Origin: Pseudomonadota bacterium
GTDB taxonomy: Bacteria; Pseudomonadota; Gammaproteobacteria; Burkholderiales; Burkholderiaceae_C
Direction of reading: 5' to 3'
Length of the DNA: 64,000 bases
Assembly: GCA_021819435.1 (NCBI GenBank)
Contig: JAKARB010000014.1
Location: 19,085 to 83,084 of the forward strand
The position numbers were made by a program, and so were the translations under genes. Shown piece by piece: positions 439 to 61,362 of the stretch (the stretch's first letter is position 1; the number at the start of each line of letters is the position of its first letter). A model generated the notes under the pieces. The model was not told where the DNA came from. It ran no database searches and saw only the letters and a list, made by a program, of their open reading frames with translations.

Positions 439-939
439 ATGAAATCCACACTGACCATCCTCGCCACCAGCCTCGCAGCGCTGTTGAGCGCACCCGCATT
501 CGCCGAGACCCCCCTCAGCGTTGACAACAGCTGGCACTACTTCTCCTTCGGCAACGTCGGCTCGACCTTCAGCAACCAGCCGTTCACGTTCACCTTGACC
601 GAGGCTGCCGTTCTGCGCGTGACCGACGCATACAACTCGGGCGACCAGTTCGAGGTCTTCAGCAATGGCAATTCGCTGGGCCTGACCTCCACCCCGACTT
701 ACGGCCATGACATCGGTGCTGACTACGCGGCCGCCTTCTTGAGCGAAAACTTCAGCCATGGTCAATGGACCCTGGCCGCAGGCACCTACAACATCACAGG
801 CGTCACCATCCTGTCGCCATACTCTGCGGGCGGCGCCGCCATCTCTCTGTCGGCCGTGCCAGAGCCCGAGTCCATCGCCCTGATGCTGGCGGGCGTGGTC
901 GTTCTGGGTGCAGGACTGCGCCGCCGCAACACACGCTGA
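439..939 (+). CDS. PEP-CTERM sorting domain protein
   Basis: Signal peptide; C-terminal VPEPESIALMLAGVVVLGAGLRRR (PEP motif, TM helix, Arg cluster). Confidence 0.9.
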   Translation: MKSTLTILATSLAALLSAPAFAETPLSVDNSWHYFSFGNVGSTFSNQPFTFTLTEAAVLRVTDAYNSGDQFEVFSNGNSLGLTSTPTYGHDIGADYAAAFLSENFSHGQWTLAAGTYNITGVTILSPYSAGGAAISLSAVPEPESIALMLAGVVVLGAGLRRRNTR

Positions 940-12142: not shown

Positions 12143-12254
12143 GAACACACCCTTCCCCTTTTTATTTTTATCTTGATCGATCACCGCTTGCGCGCGTGAG
12201 GCCTGGGTGCGTCCTGGCCCGCGTCAGCGTCTGCGCGTGACGGGAGCTTTCACC

Positions 12255-12893
12255 ATGAACAAGCAAACCACCTTCCGCACCGCCGCCCTCGCCTTGGTGC
12301 TAGGCACCTTTGCCAGCGTTGCATCGGCCCATGGCAGCCTCGATGGCGAATCGCTGTTGATTGAATACGGCGTTGACTTCGGCTCAGGCTTCACGGCCTT
12401 GAGCAGCCGCACGGTCACCGTGGGCAGCGGGCTCGAAGTCAGCGGCTGGCCGCTCAGCAGCGCCAAGGACATCCGCTGGAACATCGATTTCAGCGGCGCC
12501 AACATCGCCTTCACCTACGTGGGCAACGACGACTTCATGAACGTCGGCACCTTCGCGATGCAGGGCTTTCGCATCAGCGGCATGCCCTTCGAAGTCGAAG
12601 GCGCGCTCGTCACGAACACGGAGTACGTGCCCAACGTGAAGGGCAACCTGATCGAGGGATTCGACCCGACCACGGACCTGAGCTTCACGCCCAGGACGGT
12701 GTCGGTCAACCTCAACGAGTCGATGTACCACCACCACGCCATGACCGGCATGGGCGACCCGGTGCGCGATGCGATCAAGCTGCACCTGCACCTGGCGCCC
12801 GCCGTGCCTGAGCCATCGGGCTGGTTGCTGGGCGGCATCGGCTTGCTGGGCGTGGGCGTTCTGCGTCGGCGCAGCGTTGGATGCCGCGCTTGA
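12255..12893 (+). CDS. His/Met-rich PEP-CTERM protein
   Basis: Signal peptide ending ASA followed by His; internal SMYHHHAMTGM; C-terminal VPEPSGWLLGGIGLLGVGVLRRR. Confidence 0.85.
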   Translation: MNKQTTFRTAALALVLGTFASVASAHGSLDGESLLIEYGVDFGSGFTALSSRTVTVGSGLEVSGWPLSSAKDIRWNIDFSGANIAFTYVGNDDFMNVGTFAMQGFRISGMPFEVEGALVTNTEYVPNVKGNLIEGFDPTTDLSFTPRTVSVNLNESMYHHHAMTGMGDPVRDAIKLHLHLAPAVPEPSGWLLGGIGLLGVGVLRRRSVGCRA

Positions 12894-12938
12894 TGCCGAC
12901 GGCCCGATGAGGGCCTGACAGAAGCTTGCCAAGCTCCA

Positions 12939-12968
12939 CCGTCCCCGCCGCCGCTGTGGCGGGGACGG
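12939..12968 (+). other. Perfect 11-bp GC hairpin between the PEP-CTERM and receptor genes
   Basis: CCGTCCCCGCC-N8-GGCGGGGACGG, no U-tract. Confidence 0.6.
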
Positions 12969-13011
12969 CCTGCGGCATGCATGCGCCAACGCATTCATCA
13001 CCCACGCAACG

Positions 13012-15057
13012 ATGTTCAACTTCAGGAAGTTCAACCACCTCTGCCATGGGGCAACGGCGATGGTCCTGTCAGCCCTGCCCACCCTGTCGAGCGGCGAGAC
13101 ACTCACCGACGAAGCGACCTTGCCGGAGATCAGGGTGCAGGCCAGCAGCCCATCGGATCCCTTGCGCCCCAGCCTGCGCATCCACGGGCAGGACACGCAA
13201 GACGACCCCGCCGAGCAACTGCGCCAGGTCAACGGCGTGCGCGTGATGCGGCAGGCCGGCACCGCCGGGCTCGTGTCGGTGCAAGGCTTGAGCGGCTCGC
13301 GCGTGCCGGTGCTGCTCGATGGCTTGTCGATCGATGGTGCCTGCAACCATGGCATGGACCCGGCCACGTCTTACCTCACGCTCGACAGCATCGACCGCCT
13401 CACGGTGCTCAAAGGCCCGACCACCGTGCGCCACGCGGGGGTCTTCGCGGGTGCGGTGCTGGCCGAGCGCGTCCAACCCACCACCGATGCACCAGCCAGC
13501 ATGGCATTGCAAGCGCAAGTGGGCCGATTCGGCGAACGCATGCTGGCCGCTGAAGCCCTGCTCAACACCGAGCCGCTGTGGGCACGCGTCAACAGCCGCC
13601 GCAGCGAACGCGACGACTACCGCGACGGCCAGGGTCGCAGCGTGCCCTCGCGCTTCAACAAGCGACAGAGCATGGCCGACTTCGGCTGGCGCATCGGCCA
13701 GCACGACACCCTGACCGCCGAGGTGGCGCAAAGCGATGGCGAGGCCGTCTACCCCGCCTTCCACATGGATGGCACGGCCTTCCGCCAGAACCGCCTGGGC
13801 GCCGGCTGGCAGGCCCGCGAACGCCTGCCGTGGCTGGAGCTGATCGAGGTGCGCGCCATGGAGCAGCGCATCCGCCACGCCATGGACAACCACAGCCTGC
13901 GCGAGATGGAGCCGCTGAGCTACGACGGCGAAGCTCGCATCCGCGAGGACATGTTCCAGGACGTCAACCGGCGCCAAGTCAAGGCCGAGGCCGTGATGCG
14001 CCCGGCAGATGACCAGCGCCTGACGGTGGGCACCCAATGGGCGCGCGACGACCACGATGCCGTCAACCACCTCAGCAGCGAAGCCTGCGTGGATTTTGGC
14101 TTGCCCATGTGCTTCACGCAGGACCCGGGGCCGCAACCCTTCTACCAGGTTCGCCAGCGCAAGCGCGGCGTGTACGCCGAATGGAGCCTGGAACTCGACG
14201 CCTGGCAGCTGACCCTTGGCAGCCGGCGCGACCACGTTGGCACGCGCACGGGCGCCATCCGGTCTTTCGCCGTCAACCCGGTGGTGAAGTCAGGCGAGAA
14301 CGGGCGCACCGAGCATGAACTGAACCAGCAGGTGGCCCGCCTGGACTGGCGTTGGGATGCGGCCTGGCAGGCCCACCTGGCATGGGGCCAGGCCCAGCGC
14401 GCACCCGACCCCATCGAGGTGGGCAGCGTGGACGCCTTGCGCTTGAACCCGGAAACCAACCGCGAGTTGCATGCCGGGGTGAGCGGTGCTTCGGGAGCAT
14501 GGCAATGGGGGGTCGATGCCTTTCACAGCCGCATCGACGACTTCATTTTGCTGACCAGCGGCACGACCGCGCGCAACGTGCAGGCACGCCGCGTCGGCTG
14601 GGAGCTCGAAGGCCGATGGCGATGGGCCAGCGGTTGGTCGAGCGGCGCCGCATTCAGCCGCGTGCGCGCGGACAACCTGAGCGAACGCCGCCCGCTGGCC
14701 CAGACACCGCCCGACGAGTTGCGCCTGAACACCGACTGGCGCGAAGGCCCCTGGCAGGCGCGCATCGAATGGCGCGGCGCCGCCCGGCAAGACCGCTACG
14801 CGTTCAACCAGGGCAACACCAACGGCCTCGACCTCAACGAGGCCACGCCGGGCTTCAGCGTCGTCAACGCCTCGGTGCGACGGCAACTGCCCTGGCAAGC
14901 CAGCATCGCCATCGGCGTGGACAACGTCTTCGACCGCGCCTACGCCGAACACATCAACCACAGCGTCGACCGCAGTTGGGCCGCGCAGGGCTCCAGCAGC
15001 ACCAGGGTGCCCGAGCCCGGGCGGCGCTGGTGGTTGAAGTGGATTCAACGACTTTGA
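13012..15057 (+). CDS. oprC: TonB-dependent copper receptor, OprC-like
   Basis: Plug motif DGACNHGMDP (CxxxM) and RHAMDNHSLR resemble OprC Cu ligand motifs; GVDNVFDRAYAEH, EPGRRWW C-terminus. Confidence 0.82.
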   Translation: MFNFRKFNHLCHGATAMVLSALPTLSSGETLTDEATLPEIRVQASSPSDPLRPSLRIHGQDTQDDPAEQLRQVNGVRVMRQAGTAGLVSVQGLSGSRVPVLLDGLSIDGACNHGMDPATSYLTLDSIDRLTVLKGPTTVRHAGVFAGAVLAERVQPTTDAPASMALQAQVGRFGERMLAAEALLNTEPLWARVNSRRSERDDYRDGQGRSVPSRFNKRQSMADFGWRIGQHDTLTAEVAQSDGEAVYPAFHMDGTAFRQNRLGAGWQARERLPWLELIEVRAMEQRIRHAMDNHSLREMEPLSYDGEARIREDMFQDVNRRQVKAEAVMRPADDQRLTVGTQWARDDHDAVNHLSSEACVDFGLPMCFTQDPGPQPFYQVRQRKRGVYAEWSLELDAWQLTLGSRRDHVGTRTGAIRSFAVNPVVKSGENGRTEHELNQQVARLDWRWDAAWQAHLAWGQAQRAPDPIEVGSVDALRLNPETNRELHAGVSGASGAWQWGVDAFHSRIDDFILLTSGTTARNVQARRVGWELEGRWRWASGWSSGAAFSRVRADNLSERRPLAQTPPDELRLNTDWREGPWQARIEWRGAARQDRYAFNQGNTNGLDLNEATPGFSVVNASVRRQLPWQASIAIGVDNVFDRAYAEHINHSVDRSWAAQGSSSTRVPEPGRRWWLKWIQRL

Positions 15058-15111
15058 CTTTGATGGCAGGATGAGACCCTGCGTCCACCCGTGTTCAACC
15101 AGGAGACCAAC

Positions 15112-15618
15112 ATGAGTTCACACCGCTTTGCCCCCCTCGCATCCGCCATCGCCGCGCCGCTGCTCGCCGCCACGCTGGCCACCGCGGCGTTCAGCGCCCA
15201 CGCCCAAGTCGATGTCAGCAACGCATGGGTGCGCGCCACGGTGCCAGGTCAACAGGCCACCGGCATGTTCGCCACGCTCACCGCCAAGCAGGACAGCACG
15301 CTCGTGAGCGCCAGTTCGCCGGTGGCCAGCGCCGTCGAAGTGCACGAGATGAAGATGGAAGGCGACGTGATGAAGATGCGCGCCGTGCCCGCGCTGCCCC
15401 TGCCCGGTGGCCAGGCCGTGGCGCTCAAGCCCGGCTCCTACCACGTGATGCTGATGGGCCTGAAGAAGCCGCTGCCTGATGGCGGCACGGTGCCCGTCAA
15501 GCTGGTGGTGGAGGATGCACAGAAGAAGCAGACCACCATCGACCTCAAGGTGCCGGTGAAGAAGGCCGGGCCGGCCCAGGCGGCGGAAGAACATGGGCAT
15601 GAGCACCACCAGCATTGA
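15112..15618 (+). CDS. Copper chaperone PCu(A)C
   Basis: AWVRAT, VEVHEM...MKM...YHVML motif, His-rich tail EHGHEHHQH. Confidence 0.93.
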   Translation: MSSHRFAPLASAIAAPLLAATLATAAFSAHAQVDVSNAWVRATVPGQQATGMFATLTAKQDSTLVSASSPVASAVEVHEMKMEGDVMKMRAVPALPLPGGQAVALKPGSYHVMLMGLKKPLPDGGTVPVKLVVEDAQKKQTTIDLKVPVKKAGPAQAAEEHGHEHHQH

Positions 15619-15678: not shown

Positions 15679-17886
15679 TCAGAAACGCACACTGGCCGTG
15701 AGATGGGCCTGCCGCCCCGGCATGGGGTAGTAGGTCTGGCTGTAGGCCAGCGTGCTGTAGCGCTCGTTGAGCAGGTTGCTCACACCGAGCGCCAGTTCCA
15801 GGTCATCCAGCCGATGCCTCACCACCGCGTCGACCACCTGGTAGGCGCGCAATCGCGCCAGCGGCGGGTTGTCTGCATCGGTGGCGTTGCCATCGCGGCG
15901 CGGCCCCACATGGCGCACAGAAAGAGCCGCCTGCCACGCGGTGCTCGGCTGCCAGTCCAGCGTGAGGCTGGCCGTTGTTCTCGCCACCAGCGGGATGTCG
16001 CCCGAGCGGCCGGCCAGGCTGGGCACCAGGTAGCTGAGCATGCCGTTCAGGCGCCAGCCACGCGCCGGCTGCCACCGACCCGCGAGCTCGATGCCCTGGC
16101 GGCGTGAGGCCTCGTCGCGGTTGCGATTGACCTCGTCGCCATTGGGTTCACGGCCGTAGTAGATCTCGTCCTGCAGGTGCAGGTCGAACCAGGTCATCGA
16201 CCATGAAAGCCGCTCGCCCGCTCGCTGTCGCCAGCCCAGTTCCTGCGTCACGCCGCGCTGCGGCCGCAGGTTCTGCGCGGCCTTGTTGAGTTCATCGAGG
16301 TTGGGCGCGCGGAAGGTGCCGTTGCGACGCGCGAAGAAGCTGGTGTCGGCGCCCGGCTGCCAGACGACGCCAAGCTCGCCCAACCGGTTGAACCAGTCGC
16401 CAGCCATGGGCGCCTGCGTGTCTTCGTAGGCATAGGGCGAACACACCAGCACCGGGAAGGGCGCAAAAGCGCAATCGCGCGACCACTGCTGGGTTCGACG
16501 TGTCGACTCGAAGTGATCCCAGCGGGCGCCGGCCTGAACAGTGATCGCCGAATGTGGGCTCAAGGTCGTCGCCAACGTCCAGGCGTTGGAAGCGGCCTCA
16601 CCTTGCAGACGCGTGTGGTCTGGAGCGCTGGAGGGACGGTCCCAGCGCGCGTACTCGCCGTCCATTCGGCTCCAGCCCAGCGACACCTCCTGCCTGCGGC
16701 CCGCCAGGTCGAAGCCCACACGGTGCTTCAGTTGGTGATCCCAGCGCTCGGAGGTGGTGAGTTGTTCCTGCTCGGACAGCGGTCGGCTGGCATCAACGCC
16801 GATGTAAAAGGGGTTGCGCCGCTCGCGGTGGCTGCTGGTCCAGGTGAGCTGGCCGAGCGTGCCGAAGTCGAGGCTTGCACCCAGGTCTTGTCGATCCAGC
16901 TCCGTGCGTCCGCCGTCCAACGGGGCCTGGGTCGAGCGCAATTCACGCTCGCTGCCCGACTCGAATACGTCGCGCGAGACCGGGCCAGGCAAGCCGTAGC
17001 GGTCACGCTGTCGGGTGGCGCGCGCATGGGCATCGGCTTTCACGTCGCCGAGGGAGGCCTGCCAGCGCAAGGTGAGTGCCGAACGCGTGCTGTCGAATTC
17101 GCTGTTGTTGCGCCAGCCGGGTTCTTGCCCACGGTGCAGTTGCAGCACGGGCGTCCAGGCGCCGATCCGGGTCGCGAGTTGGAGATCACCAATGCGTTCA
17201 CCCAGGGTGCCCACGCGCACCTGTGCTCGCCCGCGACGTTCGCCATCGTCGAGCTCGGGCAGGGTGTTGATGCGTACCACGCCGGCCACCGCGCCACTGC
17301 CGTGCTCAATGGCGCCGCCGCCACGCACGACTTCGATCTGGCGCACATCGCTCAGCGACAGCGATGACAAGTTGGCACCTGAAAGATCGTTCTCGTTGAG
17401 GACCACGCCGTCGACCACGATCAACACGTTGCTGCCGGCGGACTCGCCCATGCCACGCATGTCCAGTGTGGCGCTGCGGTCGTTGCCGAAGTAGCTTTGC
17501 AGCGGCAGGTTGGCTTCGGTGGCCAGCAGGTCGGCCACCGAGCTCGCGCTGGAGCGAGCGATGTCGCGCGCGGTCAGCACCGTGACGTTGCGCGCGGCGT
17601 CGGCCGATGGCGCAGCGGCTTCGGAGCCAGCTTGTGCACGCACGCGGACCTCGGGCAAGGTCGCCTCGGCGTCCACCACCTGCTGCCCAGGCCGTTGCTC
17701 AATCGGTGGCGCGGGCGACGTGCCCGCGCCCTGCGCCAAGGCAGCCCCCCAGATCCATGGCCACAGCACACCTGTCGCCATGGCAATGGCCGGCCTCGGC
17801 CAGATCGCCGGCAGCGCCCGCCGCCCCGCAGCACCCGCAGCACCCGCAGCACCCGCAGCACCCGGAGCGCGCGGGCCGCGCCTCAT
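15679..17886 (-). CDS. TonB-dependent receptor, probable cobalamin receptor (BtuB-like by context)
   Basis: Plug (DMRGMG..NVLIVVDGV), barrel, C-terminal Phe; last gene of the riboswitch-led operon, ATGA-coupled to the DUF4465 gene. Confidence 0.85.
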   Translation of the reverse strand: MRRGPRAPGAAGAAGAAGAAGRRALPAIWPRPAIAMATGVLWPWIWGAALAQGAGTSPAPPIEQRPGQQVVDAEATLPEVRVRAQAGSEAAAPSADAARNVTVLTARDIARSSASSVADLLATEANLPLQSYFGNDRSATLDMRGMGESAGSNVLIVVDGVVLNENDLSGANLSSLSLSDVRQIEVVRGGGAIEHGSGAVAGVVRINTLPELDDGERRGRAQVRVGTLGERIGDLQLATRIGAWTPVLQLHRGQEPGWRNNSEFDSTRSALTLRWQASLGDVKADAHARATRQRDRYGLPGPVSRDVFESGSERELRSTQAPLDGGRTELDRQDLGASLDFGTLGQLTWTSSHRERRNPFYIGVDASRPLSEQEQLTTSERWDHQLKHRVGFDLAGRRQEVSLGWSRMDGEYARWDRPSSAPDHTRLQGEAASNAWTLATTLSPHSAITVQAGARWDHFESTRRTQQWSRDCAFAPFPVLVCSPYAYEDTQAPMAGDWFNRLGELGVVWQPGADTSFFARRNGTFRAPNLDELNKAAQNLRPQRGVTQELGWRQRAGERLSWSMTWFDLHLQDEIYYGREPNGDEVNRNRDEASRRQGIELAGRWQPARGWRLNGMLSYLVPSLAGRSGDIPLVARTTASLTLDWQPSTAWQAALSVRHVGPRRDGNATDADNPPLARLRAYQVVDAVVRHRLDDLELALGVSNLLNERYSTLAYSQTYYPMPGRQAHLTASVRF
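17825..17864. repeat. 9-bp tandem repeat (CCCGCAGCA)x4 in the receptor signal region
   Basis: Seen directly; encodes GAAGAAGAAGAAG in frame. Confidence 0.9.
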
Positions 17887-18680
17887 CGCTGCGCCCGGCG
17901 ACGCAGGCCGATGACGCCCACCACCCCCACCAACATCATCGCCAGCGACGAGGCTTCGGGCACAGCACTCACGGCTGACACCGCCAGGTTGTCGATGGCG
18001 AAGTAGGCCGGCGTGTTCATGCCGAACGAGCCCACGTCAGAAGAGGTCAACTCGAACTTGAGCGAGGTGACCGTGCCGAGCGAGCTCAGGTTCACGCTGG
18101 TCCAGTTGCTGACCACGTGGTCCAGGCTGTTGTCGGCGAAACGGTAATCGGCCAGGTAGAAGTCGACGCGGCCGGTTTCCTGGCCGGTGGTGTTCAGGCC
18201 GATGAAGGTGAGCTTGAGGAAGTCGGCGTCGTTGCCGCTGTCGCCGCCGAACTTCTTGGCGAATGAGTCGCCTTGCAGCATCGACAAGGCCGCGTACGTG
18301 GTGTTGGTGACGTCCACGCTTTCGACCACGGAGGGCGCGTCCAGGCTGATCACGGGCGAGCCGATGTAGGCCAGCGCGTAGTTGGCCGAACCGCCCGCGC
18401 CCGAGCCGGCGTAGGCGCTGAACTGGTTCTCGAAGCCCGGCGTGGTGGTGTCGGTTTCGTTGGAGTAGGTCCAGCCGCTCCAGCAGCAGCCGCCGCCGTA
18501 ATCGGTGAAGTCGTGGTTGAAGCTGGCGGCGCCGCTGGTGAACTGGGCCGAGGTGCCGGGGAAGAAGTGGCTGTTCGCGCTCAGCGGCAGGTCGTCGAAG
18601 GTGCTGACGGTCACGGCGGCTTGCGCGCCCGAGGCCAGGCCGGCTGCCAGCAGGGCAGCGGCGATGCGGGAGGTGTTCAT
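17883..18680 (-). CDS. DUF4465 domain PEP-CTERM protein
   Basis: WSGWTYSN, NQFSAY, VTNTTY, FYLADYR, GMNTPAYFAIDNL (DUF4465) plus VPEASSLAMMLVGVVGVIGLRRR. Confidence 0.88.
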   Translation of the reverse strand: MNTSRIAAALLAAGLASGAQAAVTVSTFDDLPLSANSHFFPGTSAQFTSGAASFNHDFTDYGGGCCWSGWTYSNETDTTTPGFENQFSAYAGSGAGGSANYALAYIGSPVISLDAPSVVESVDVTNTTYAALSMLQGDSFAKKFGGDSGNDADFLKLTFIGLNTTGQETGRVDFYLADYRFADNSLDHVVSNWTSVNLSSLGTVTSLKFELTSSDVGSFGMNTPAYFAIDNLAVSAVSAVPEASSLAMMLVGVVGVIGLRRRAQR

Positions 18681-18716: not shown

Positions 18717-19532
18717 TCAGGCTGCGCGGCGACGACGGCGCTGCAGCGCGCCCATGGCCAGCAGGCCCGCACCCATCAGCGCCCAGGTCTCGGGTTCGGG
18801 CACCGGCGCAAAGTGGATGACGCCGACGGCATCGAGATCGAAGCCGCCGCTGCCGGTGGTGGGGTACGGGTCATAGATCGGGTGCGGGCCGCCGTACTGC
18901 GCGGGGTAGTTGTCGAACTCCTGGCCACGGCCGACCACGTCGACGATGCGCACGTAGCGCACGTTGTCCACGTCCAGGCCCGCCTTGCCGGCCAGCGAAT
19001 CCAGGTCGAAGGGCGTGCCGAAACCCTGGCGGTACTTGCCGGCCAGGCCATCGATGTTGGTCGGGTCGATGCTGCCGAAGCCGCCCACCGGCGCGGGGGT
19101 GAACGAGTAGCTGGGGAAGCGGAAGAAGTCGACGCCGTTGGATGAGACCTCGACGAAGCCCAGCTCCAGGAAAGTGTCGTTGAAGCTGTTTTCAAAGACC
19201 GCGAAGTCAGCACCCGCGCCGTTGTAGATGGCGCCATCGAAGGTCAGGGTGATGCGGCCAGCGTCGCCCAACACGACGATGTCGGTGGAGGTGCCTTGGG
19301 CCTTGCCCAGGGCCTTCTCGGGCGTTTTCCATTGCGCGTCGACGTTGGGACCCGGCTGGTAGTCCTGCCAGCCGGTGGCCCATTGCACGATGGCCGGGCT
19401 GTCCTTGCTGATGGCCGTGGAGCCGGGCTTGCCGGCGGCCGGGGCGAAAGGACCGGCCGCGTGGGCGGTGCCCAGGCAGGCCAGGGCCAGGGTGGCCGCG
19501 CAGGCCGGGACTGAGAGAAGCTTGAATCGCAT
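18717..19532 (-). CDS. PEP-CTERM cell-surface protein with BtuH-like domain
   Basis: [47 protein letters not shown] plus [26 protein letters not shown]. Confidence 0.8.
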
Positions 19533-19634
19533 GTTGTTCCTCCGGGCACCCACCATCCGTGGGCGCATTCGAGCCAACCGGCTGAACACAGCAGAGGAAC
19601 AAGACAGCACGCGCACACCCGGTCGGGCCGCATG

Positions 19635-19667
19635 AAAAGGCCGAAGGCGTGTCGTCACCGCCTCGCC
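19635..19667 (-). terminator. Candidate intrinsic terminator in the riboswitch expression platform
   Basis: On the minus strand, AGGCG/CGCCT stem followed by CGGCCUUUU between the aptamer and the start codon. Confidence 0.45.
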
Positions 19668-19694
19668 GCCCACCGCAGCAACCGGGTCCATGCT

Positions 19695-19910
19695 CCAGGC
19701 CGGTCTCCGGGCTCGCGAACGCCTTGTGGGCCAGCGATCCGCCTTCCCATGCTTCGCAGCACAGTGGCACCGTGGATCGCCTTGCTTCGCTTCACCGTTG
19801 CGGGGGCAGCGTCGGGATCAGCGAGCCTTGTTTGTCAAGCAAAAAGGCCCGCACACCGAACTTCCCGTTTCACCCTTGCAGACCGCTCGCGCGGCCCCAA
19901 GGACACCTGA
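19695..19910 (-). ncRNA. Cobalamin (B12) riboswitch
   Basis: Minus strand reads AGGTG...GGGTGAAACGGGAAGTTCGGTG...GCTGCCCCCGCAACGGTGAA...GCCACTG...TGGGAAGG...GAGCCCGGAGACCGGCC (B12 box); TACAAT -10 at 19921-19926. Confidence 0.95.
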
Positions 19911-20044
19911 GGCGGGGCGGATTGTAAAGCTGGCCCTGGGGTTTGCCCAGCCCCGCGTTCCGGGCCCCTGAACGGGCTCGGAACGTAGACTGGTGCTGGC
20001 GCGCTTGCGCCGCCCCCCCAATCAACACCCGCGCAGCGGCCCTC

Positions 20045-61083: not shown

Positions 61084-61362
61084 TCACCGCAGCTCGCGGG
61101 TGTGCCACAAGCGCAAGATCCAAATCTCGTTGCCGCTGGTGAGTTCGTACCGCATCTCGTGGTCACCGACCAAGATGTAGCGAACCTCGCGAGGCTCGAA
61201 CTCCGTGAGCTTCGTCCCGATGCGAGGCTGCATCAGCAGCAAGTCGGGGCCAGCGGTCAGCCGCTGCACCACTCGTGCAGCAGCTTGGGGGTTCATCGGA
61301 CGCAAGAACTCATGCAGCCGCCCCAAGTCGCCAAGGGCGGCGCGGGTCCATTTGATCGTCAT
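61084..61362 (-). CDS. RelE/ParE family type II toxin
   Basis: IKWTRAALGDL.RL, P.IG, YEMRYE, IWILRLWHTRE. Confidence 0.88.
   Translation of the reverse strand: MTIKWTRAALGDLGRLHEFLRPMNPQAAARVVQRLTAGPDLLLMQPRIGTKLTEFEPREVRYILVGDHEMRYELTSGNEIWILRLWHTRELR

Follow-up and report, generated by a model that had tools for sequence, protein, structure and literature searches.

Organisation of the operon

The subject of this analysis is a gene on the reverse strand of a 64-kb stretch of DNA from a bacterium of the Burkholderiales (contig JAKARB010000014.1; the whole stretch is called the window below), which encodes a protein with a DUF4465 domain between a signal peptide on one side and a tail of the PEP-CTERM type on the other. 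The gene is the middle one of three in an operon that reads, in order, a cobalamin riboswitch, gene 1, the DUF4465 gene (after a gap of 36 nt) and a gene for a TonB-dependent receptor (after a gap of about 100 nt) (Table 1). An earlier interpretation made from the letters alone (the sequence-only reading) had described a DUF4465 domain carried on a PEP-CTERM anchor inside a B12 regulon. The open reading frame (ORF) lies exactly where that reading put it, and all the strings that it quoted are found in the translation: GGGCCW (G62-W67, with C65 and C66), NQFSAY (N85-Y90), TNTTY (T125-Y129), FYLADYR (F174-R180) and TPAYFAIDNL (T223-L232). The placement in a B12 regulon also holds, as judged by an RF00174 aptamer that lies upstream on the same strand and is the sole Rfam match in the window. 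We consider it likely that the gene encodes a secreted corrinoid binder of the DUF4465 (BtuJ) type that works by the mechanism proposed below.

Table 1. Coordinates of the operon and its parts, followed by other features of the window
Feature	Position	Strand	Details
Sigma-70-like promoter candidate TGGGCA-17-TACAAT	19921..19949	-	9/12 hexamer matches; consensus match only
Cobalamin riboswitch aptamer RF00174	19681..19925	-	96.9 bits against a gathering cut-off of 31.5, E 6.6e-23, full model 1-189
Probable expression platform	19536..19600	-	Anti-Shine-Dalgarno (anti-SD) GUUCCUC 19594-19600 against GAGGAAC, which overlaps the Shine-Dalgarno sequence (SD) GGAGGA 19538-19543
Gene 1	18717..19532	-	271 aa; Sec signal, 'g1 domain' at about 26-240, PEP-CTERM tail
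DUF4465 gene	17883..18680	-	265 aa; middle gene of the operon; stop codon 17883-17885
Signal peptide of the DUF4465 protein	18618-18680	-	Residues 1-21; by inspection
Cys65-Cys66 pair of the DUF4465 protein	18483-18488	-	From the translation
DUF4465 domain	17985-18485	-	Residues 66-232; Pfam PF14717
PEP-CTERM tail of the DUF4465 protein	17886-17966	-	Residues 239-265; PF07589, TIGR02595
9-nt tandem repeat GCAGCACCC x 6.6	17811..17868	.	Between the stop codon of the DUF4465 gene and the receptor start as called
TonB-dependent receptor gene	15679..17781	-	700 aa as called; ORF start at 17886 also possible
PEP-CTERM ORF, 166 aa (fourth in the window)	439-939	+	FxDxF family resemblance, 41.8 bits, below the cut-off of 50
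PEP-CTERM ORF without other domain	12207-12893	+	Pfam/NCBIfam
TonB-copper-like receptor	13012-15057	+	284 bits against a cut-off of 472
PCuAC/LpqE-like protein	15091-15618	+	Pfam/public gene calls
ParE-family toxin ORF	61084-61362	-	PF05016, E 5e-14

The riboswitch and the start codon of gene 1 are separated by 148 nt that contain no gene; this start codon and the length of gene 1 were taken from the public gene call together with the SD. The promoter candidate, the one site found against 0.2 expected in shuffled sequences, overlaps the 5' end of the riboswitch by five bases. In the minimum free energy fold of 19520-19700(-), the anti-SD is paired with the GAGGAAC stretch (-88.9 kcal/mol, z -2.5), and this pairing may serve as a translational off-switch, in the layout that is usual for such switches. 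Four intrinsic terminators were predicted in the operon against 2.6 expected, none of them convincingly placed. In several contigs from metagenomes and metatranscriptomes, 19715-19718 is joined to 19794, so that 75-78 bases of the riboswitch are skipped; most likely these contigs represent other cobalamin riboswitches of the samples concerned, which have a shorter variable region and match at the conserved flanks, and not a deletion variant of this locus. The genes flanking the operon are unrelated or convergent.

The receptor carries the Plug and TonB_dep_Rec_b-barrel domains of Pfam and is presumed to be the outer-membrane corrinoid importer of the operon, the label 'BtuB-like' being given from context only. 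Contigs from the Logan assemblies of two metagenomes end or begin at the 9-nt repeat in front of the called receptor gene, and with the alternative receptor start at 17886 this repeat would be translated, as (GAA)n, in the leader of the receptor.

The closest relatives of the window are metagenome-assembled genomes (MAGs) of Aquabacterium, at 82% identity, and the whole stretch is present in one mine-drainage metagenome. Among cultivable bacteria, Aquabacterium soli SJQ9, Methyloversatilis and Methylobacillus arboreus have the same operon. A leaf-litter metatranscriptome contains contigs, 90-99% alike, that span the riboswitch together with gene 1 and the DUF4465 gene, a weak indication that close relatives of the operon are transcribed.

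Fold and predicted corrin pocket of the DUF4465 protein

The Pfam search gave PF14717 (DUF4465) with an E-value of 3.8e-56 and 190.6 bits against a cut-off of 25, and the match covers the profile from position 5 to its end at 176. AlphaFold2, run on an alignment of 41 homologues, gave a model with a predicted local distance difference test score (pLDDT) of 88.7 and a predicted template modelling score (pTM) of 0.81. It is an augmented beta-jellyroll with a DE-loop helix (helix 128-136, after strand 110-127). When this model was compared with the PDB by Foldseek, the nine top matches were all DUF4465 structures (9HMU, 9QPM, 9FCT, 4JQR, 4E9K and 9I2L), with E-values from 1.8e-19 to 1.5e-11, and the tenth match followed at 2e-4. 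The target-normalised TM-scores were 0.54-0.81 over the nine matches, with the six closest at 0.73-0.81. In the sequence comparison, 9HMU, a B12 complex, came first among the solved structures (E 2.9e-27), followed by the unliganded DUF4465 structure 4JQR, by BtuJ1 (9QPM/9FCT, about 1e-19) and by BtuJ2 (9I2L).

The sequence-only reading had stated, subject to verification, that DUF4465 lipoproteins from B12 loci of Bacteroides had been described as B12-binding BtuJ proteins. This statement was correct: in B. thetaiotaomicron, the DUF4465 lipoproteins BtuJ1 (BT_1491) and BtuJ2 (BT_1957) are tight binders of B12, with nanomolar to picomolar affinity (PMC12751083; bioRxiv 10.1101/2025.07.01.662609). 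Eight DUF4465 proteins with identities down to 16% bind B12, all members tested so far do so, and the binders include proteins from Verrucomicrobiota, Planctomycetota and Cyanobacteria (PMC13398666).

Four residues form hydrogen bonds to the corrin side chains in both BtuJ1 and BtuJ2, namely Y146, N241, T242 and Y245 in BtuJ1 numbering (PMC12751083). Counting along the HMMER alignment to 9FCT, we found that they correspond to Y129, N222, T223 and Y226, and all four are invariant in the 41 homologues. Y129 is the N-terminal tyrosine of the DE helix and stands at the end of TNTTY, just as Y146 does in BtuJ1, while the other three belong to the HI-loop motif (M/G)NTP(A/S)Y, here M221-N222-T223-P224-A225-Y226 (BtuJ1 240-245). 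Of the outcomes that the sequence-only reading had named as refuting it, a fold other than DUF4465/BtuJ and a lack of the pocket residues were both checked, and neither was observed. The DUF4465/BtuJ reading is thus supported as far as sequence and structure prediction reach, and B12 binding is predicted.

The loop beside the pocket holds the adjacent cysteine pair C65-C66 that the sequence-only reading had pointed out in GGGCCW. In the model the pair is placed in the loop from strand 52-58 to strand 67-73, where the confidence is lower than elsewhere in the domain, four residues past the position aligned to BtuJ1 W78. Among the genome loci described below it is confined to Betaproteobacteria. 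When cysteines after residue 22 were counted in the 120 closest protein clusters, which served as our homologue set, 90 had exactly two, 21 had none and three had one. This both-or-none pattern suggests a vicinal disulfide that would stiffen a variable pocket loop and not an essential ligand. A role as cobalt ligand, by analogy with BtuM, was considered and set aside: the pair is unlikely to be essential, since 21 of the 120 clusters have no cysteine and since D5EK51, the protein of the 9HMU structure, binds B12 without it.

Signal peptide and PEP-CTERM tail

The N-terminus of the DUF4465 protein, MNTSRIAAALLAAGLASGAQA followed by A, looks by inspection like a signal peptide of type I, in which the n-region is basic, the core is hydrophobic and A-Q-A precedes the cut, in agreement with the Sec signal proposed earlier; the AlphaFold2 model has a helix at 3-15 within it. 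Residues 1-64 contain no cysteine and hence no lipobox cysteine. These two features, the A-Q-A/A site and the missing lipobox cysteine, argue for a member of the DUF4465 family that is not a lipoprotein of the BtuJ type.

At the opposite end, the PEP-CTERM tail was recovered by PF07589 (20.8 bits against 20.7, residues 239-262) and by TIGR02595 (17.4 against 16). It consists of VPEA, a 16-residue hydrophobic stretch, SSLAMMLVGVVGVIGL, and a basic RRRAQR. A PEP-CTERM-like tail is present in 117 of the 120 closest clusters, with the VPE[PA] motif kept; the VPEA variant is recurrent (21 clusters), and one cluster bears the JGI name 'DUF4465/PEP-CTERM motif'. The matches to the domain, the tail and the riboswitch are not due to chance. 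Since the window contains four PEP-CTERM ORFs, the organism evidently uses this sorting system, and an exosortase encoded elsewhere in the genome is likely.

Gene 1, a probable distant relative of BtuH

Gene 1 also ends in a PEP-CTERM tail (25.4 bits, Pfam), and its central part, the g1 domain, matched no Pfam family in any of 29 diverse members (the window protein and 28 relatives). The domain is nevertheless common, with matches at E<=1e-30 in 1247 clusters (50% identity). Its AlphaFold2 model (pLDDT 87.4) is a beta-sandwich, for which the top Foldseek match was 8blw_B, that is BtuG1 with its fused BtuH domain, at an E-value of 2e-4; generic sandwiches of the discoidin and carbohydrate-binding module 32 (CBM32) type came next, and BtuH2 (7BIZ) was missing from the 50 top matches.

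Neither the single sequence nor a profile of close homologues gave a meaningful match when gene 1 was searched against the PDB. A broader profile, A3, made from 29 g1 domains of five phyla, gave one PDB match, to residues 373-475 of 8blw_B (E 6.8e-4). This chain is BtuG1 of B. thetaiotaomicron, and residues 373-475 lie within its C-terminal BtuH-type domain (PMC10404256); the same segment aligns with BtuH2 (7BIZ) at E 1.9e-16. In profile-profile comparison the g1 domain scored 91.8% against five BtuH fragments, and against 31 full BtuH domains, which had been recovered by a scan of gut metagenomes, hhalign gave 96.4% (E 1.3e-9, 81 columns).

It should be underlined that the similarity is limited to the N-terminal 80-100 residues. 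A global alignment of the g1 and BtuH domains was tried and rejected, as the C-terminal halves do not align credibly, and consequently nothing can be said on the metal site of BtuH or on Y475, H476 and Y510. Within the aligned part, the BtuH2 contact residues N399 and F401 have counterparts in gene 1, namely N115 and F117, which are invariant or nearly so, whereas the B12-contacting PAPGQF motif (Q333 and F334 in BtuH2) is not found in gene 1, where the aligned QPGPNVD varies across the family. We conclude that gene 1 is probably a distant relative of the BtuH B12-binding domain, as judged by its N-terminal half. The idea that gene 1 and the DUF4465 protein are paralogues was discarded, as hhalign aligned just the last strand and the PEP-CTERM tail.

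Distribution of the architecture

To place the operon among its relatives, we drew on a scan of GTDB species representatives that yielded at least 578 loci, of which the 80 best were analysed; 76 of these have a complete 3' end. The 80 loci come from Burkholderiales/Rhodocyclales, Planctomycetota, Verrucomicrobiota, Desulfobacterota, Cyanobacteria and, in two cases, Bacteroidota. In published surveys the DUF4465 family is about 83% Bacteroidota, and the many non-Bacteroidota loci found here suggest that this figure underestimates the environmental branch.

The sorting signals of the 76 complete loci fall into several types. An exosortase-type tail is present in 56: 47 proteins are plain DUF4465 with PEP-CTERM, 7 have a tail of the VPxP type (mostly Desulfobacterota), and 2 combine extra domains with PEP-CTERM. 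[quoted passage not shown] Exosortase-type tails are therefore usual in this subfamily, in Betaproteobacteria, Planctomycetota, Verrucomicrobiota and Desulfobacterota and in one of the two cyanobacterial loci. The VPxP tail itself is an exosortase-type sorting signal different from VPEP. Tails of the form VPxP(A)-hydrophobic-basic were seen in L019, L028, L033, L034, L048, L049 and L059 (Desulfobacterota and some unclassified Proteobacteria), and they may resemble VPLPA-CTERM.

These data also bear on the proposal of the sequence-only reading that the binding fold had been moved from a lipoprotein/T9SS anchor to exosortase sorting. The same fold is indeed found with an exosortase-type tail, but the direction of change and the single event that the proposal implies are hypothetical; for the direction, the locus set has too few Bacteroidota sequences (L063, L082).

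The riboswitch and the gene order are widely shared. Of 18 betaproteobacterial-type loci, 17 have a cobalamin riboswitch upstream on the same strand (the 18th is cut off by the end of its contig), and so have 18 of the 19 loci that come from other phyla, which makes 35 of 37 related loci across five phyla. The receptor gene follows the DUF4465 gene in 15 of the 18 betaproteobacterial-type loci and stands before gene 1 in two more. In 53 of the 80 loci a g1 domain and DUF4465 lie no more than 3.5 kb apart, with g1 upstream in Betaproteobacteria and downstream in most Planctomycetota and Verrucomicrobiota.

The two domains also occur fused in single ORFs (L023, L029, L030, L058, L061 and L074, the smaller planctomycetal fusions). 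Pfam confirmed two fusions: P0251, with g1, DUF4465 and PEP-CTERM, and P0260, with g1, DUF4465 at three places (562 bits in total) and a dockerin.

Some further observations were made on these loci. Five of the six smaller planctomycetal fusions end in the conserved motif W-I-A-R-C-D-L, whereas L030 has a PEP-CTERM end. In Pirellulaceae (L031, L036, L045, L054, L066, L073, L081; P0260), proteins of about 2000 aa combine g1 and DUF4465 with a C-terminal dockerin-like region. Planctomycetota loci (e.g. L020-L030, L041, L060, L070) have no gene for a TonB-dependent receptor within 3.5 kb of the pair of DUF4465 and g1, unlike those of Proteobacteria. In the Desulfobacterales MAG L019, a c-di-GMP-I riboswitch (2373-2455, 50.3 bits) stands in tandem just 5' of the cobalamin riboswitch (2506-2725) in front of DUF4465.

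Proposed mechanism and alternatives

The mechanism that we propose starts from what is observed at the locus: a DUF4465 domain with its fold and conserved contact residues, a PEP-CTERM tail, a riboswitch and an order of genes that is conserved. At low intracellular cobalamin, the ribosome-binding site (RBS) would be freed by the riboswitch and the three proteins would be made. Both PEP-CTERM proteins would be exported by Sec, the signal peptide of the DUF4465 protein being cut after A21, and their C-terminal helices would at first hold them in the inner membrane. For the later steps, we infer that an exosortase encoded elsewhere recognises VPEA (VPE(A/P)) and removes the helix with the basic tail, and that the mature jellyroll of about 220 aa reaches the cell surface or the exopolysaccharide matrix. 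There it would trap corrinoids, B12 or others, in a pocket that is lined by loops and lies around Y129 and N222-T223-P224-A225-Y226, and pass the ligand, directly or via the gene-1 protein, to the TonB-dependent receptor for import.

Several points weigh against this mechanism. With regard to sorting, the tail of the DUF4465 protein lies only narrowly above both curated cut-offs, VPEA replaces VPEP in it, and no exosortase gene of the EpsH/Xrt type was found among the genes of the 64-kb window (Pfam and public gene calls). To our knowledge, passage of a PEP-CTERM protein across the outer membrane has not been established in any organism. In Akkermansia, some PEP-CTERM proteins were recovered in outer-membrane fractions and more of them in intracellular ones (PMC4960237). 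With regard to the pocket, the AB-loop tyrosine of the 'tyrosine halo', BtuJ1 Y97, is replaced by F83, which is aromatic without a hydroxyl, and BtuJ1 W78 is replaced by Y61. Both differences are conservative; Y97 is not among the residues that form hydrogen bonds in both BtuJ1 and BtuJ2 (PMC12751083), and the N-terminal side of the pocket varies between solved structures (PMC13398666). B12 binding as such is carried over from published DUF4465 relatives and is a prediction for all betaproteobacterial members. As for the operon, the receptor falls below every NCBIfam equivalog cut-off (TonB-B12 101.5 against 599.7), and neither a BtuG-like lid protein nor btuFCD genes were found in it by the public gene calls. 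Lastly, the metatranscriptome contigs come from relatives and possibly from DNA carry-over, and they are accordingly a weak sign of transcription.

Because the destination of PEP-CTERM proteins is poorly known, a released and an inner-membrane-tethered form of the protein have to be weighed beside the surface-bound one. In the first case the DUF4465 protein would be cleaved but left unanchored, and would be shed to the medium or matrix as a diffusible B12 trap, a 'corrinophore', to be recaptured at the TonB-dependent receptor. The zinc protein ZepA, which has the same layout, was found in the exoproteome with both ends lost (PMC10957091), BtuJ1 and BtuJ2 act at a distance on Bacteroides vesicles (PMC12751083), and the planctomycetal relatives have no neighbouring receptor gene within 3.5 kb. 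However, the sequence gives nothing to tell 'released' from 'anchored', and a released protein of about 23 kDa must dock on the receptor and hand over its ligand, for which no docking partner is known. We regard release as unlikely, though worth keeping in view.

In the second case the C-terminal helix would stay uncleaved as an inner-membrane anchor, and the jellyroll, placed in the periplasm, would carry B12 from the receptor to an inner-membrane transporter, as BtuF does. This would fit an operon that has no btuF, the periplasmic-type signal that is the only one in 170 of 824 DUF4465 proteins (PMC12751083), the greater abundance of the Akkermansia proteins in intracellular fractions, and the fact that no outer-membrane route is known for PEP-CTERM proteins. 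On the other hand, the tail is a conserved PEP-CTERM signal and not a generic helix, as judged by the VPE[PA] motif of 117 of 120 homologues. In other phyla it is swapped for T9SS-like C-terminal domains, a dockerin, lipoprotein signals or VPxP tails, and this replacement by other surface-sorting signals argues for an extracellular destination. The DUF4465 gene moreover stands upstream of the receptor gene, as do those of surface binders in Bacteroides. A periplasmic shuttle therefore seems to us quite improbable.

That the jellyroll binds a matrix polysaccharide or another tetrapyrrole and the riboswitch linkage is incidental seems highly improbable: beta-jellyrolls are common as carbohydrate-binding modules, weak Foldseek matches to such modules appear from rank 10, and PEP-CTERM proteins are associated with exopolysaccharide loci, but the riboswitch recurs in nearly all related loci across five phyla, the four B12-contacting residues are invariant among the 41 homologues, and every DUF4465 protein tested so far binds B12 (PMC13398666).

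Other features of the window

A second arrangement with a PEP-CTERM ORF directly upstream of a TonB-dependent receptor gene lies on the forward strand at 12207-15618, just beyond the receptor gene of the operon (Table 1). This is a hint that, in the source organism, accessory binding for TonB-dependent receptors may be a more general role of PEP-CTERM proteins. Another short PEP-CTERM ORF and a ParE-family toxin ORF complete the list of features recorded in the window.

Significance

We take IPR013424 of InterPro to be the PEP-CTERM domain and IPR026444 to be the T9SS C-terminal sorting domain. In a survey from 2025 of 824 non-redundant IPR027828 proteins, 229 had IPR026444, 88 had IPR013424, 275 were lipoproteins and 170 had a periplasmic signal (PMC12751083). 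The combination of DUF4465 with PEP-CTERM is thus already counted in the literature, where its biology is not discussed; the words PEP-CTERM and exosortase do not occur in the papers on DUF4465/BtuJ and BtuH that are cited here, and our search of the literature found no link between PEP-CTERM and cobalamin uptake. The function of the family has been published, and the DUF4465-PEP-CTERM protein described here belongs, as an ordinary member, to one of its subgroups, which is large and was catalogued before; for this reason the DUF4465 result is in itself incremental.

The part worth following is the picture at the level of the operon, with a BtuH-like partner, fusions, five phyla and exosortase-type anchors. 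We suggest, tentatively and with somewhat less than even confidence, that these loci represent a conserved and so far unrecognised two-protein module for corrinoid capture, in which a distant BtuH-type protein is paired or fused with DUF4465, under a cobalamin riboswitch and with tails of the exosortase type (PEP-CTERM, VPxP); the module would be found in Betaproteobacteria, Planctomycetota, Verrucomicrobiota and Desulfobacterota and in some of the Cyanobacteria. If this suggestion is true, the extracellular B12 relay of gut Bacteroides, minus BtuG, would be widespread in environmental Gram-negatives, and the exosortase system would gain a defined nutrient-scavenging cargo.

Competition for B12 shapes microbial communities, and studies of the extracellular capture proteins BtuG, BtuH, BtuJ and BtuK have been confined almost entirely to gut Bacteroides, where these are lipoproteins. 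To judge by this locus and hundreds of similar ones, the BtuJ fold may be the standard first-line B12 trap of many environmental Gram-negatives (from mine drainage, aquifers, soil and the sea), probably with a BtuH-like partner alongside, and would there be carried on exosortase sorting signals in place of lipid anchors. The PEP-CTERM system, the cargo functions of which are mostly unknown, would get a cargo whose ligand is easy to assay and colours the protein pink, and the DUF4465-PEP-CTERM proteins would offer a clean handle on where PEP-CTERM proteins end up.

Comparison with known systems

The nearest characterised systems are those of BtuJ. Like BtuJ1 (9FCT, 9QPM) and BtuJ2 (9I2L), the protein has PF14717 and the augmented beta-jellyroll, with a target TM-score of 0.75-0.77 to BtuJ1, and it shares the MNTP(A/S)Y loop, the helix tyrosine, the cobalamin riboswitch ahead and the adjoining TonB-dependent receptor. 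The identity is 28-29% to BtuJ1 and 16-19% to BtuJ2. Whereas the BtuJ proteins are lipoproteins with the surface-export signal of Bacteroidota, the DUF4465 protein combines a type I signal with PEP-CTERM; it differs further in the extra Cys-Cys of a pocket-side loop, in Y61/F83 for W78/Y97 and in an operon without BtuG. Closer by sequence is D5EK51 of Coraliomargarita akajimensis (9HMU; 33% identity, target TM-score 0.73), which binds B12 (PMC13398666) and has the motifs W-SGW-YS, TNT-Y, FYLADYR and P-Y in common with the DUF4465 protein. It differs in the absence of the Cys-Cys pair, and the crystallised construct stops three residues past the domain.

Gene 1 is best compared with BtuH2 (BT_1956; 7BIZ) and with BtuG1/BtuGH (BT_1490; 8BLW chain B), with which it shares the motifs Y-x-P, (S/T)LG-x-GG-x-I-x-x-F and G-x-DF-x-(V/I)-x-x-N-x-(F/Y) as well as a context of riboswitch, DUF4465 and TonB-dependent receptor. 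The anchor is different, PEP-CTERM in gene 1 and a lipid in BtuH, and homologues of BtuH have been reported from gut Bacteroidota only (PMC13616437). The riboswitch resembles RF00174 members of the btuB type in that a full-length aptamer precedes a corrinoid uptake operon and an anti-SD is able to mask the RBS; it differs in that the first genes behind it encode two PEP-CTERM proteins and not a receptor.

Outside B12 uptake, the closest parallel is ZepA of Anabaena sp. PCC 7120, in which a signal peptide and a tail of the PEP-CTERM type likewise frame a small binding domain that is induced when the ligand is scarce. ZepA is a zinc exoprotein, and genes for a TonB-dependent receptor and other PEP-CTERM proteins lie near its own (PMC10957091). 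Its fold is unrelated, its ligand is zinc and it is controlled by Zur instead of a riboswitch, but it is the best precedent for the capture logic proposed here.

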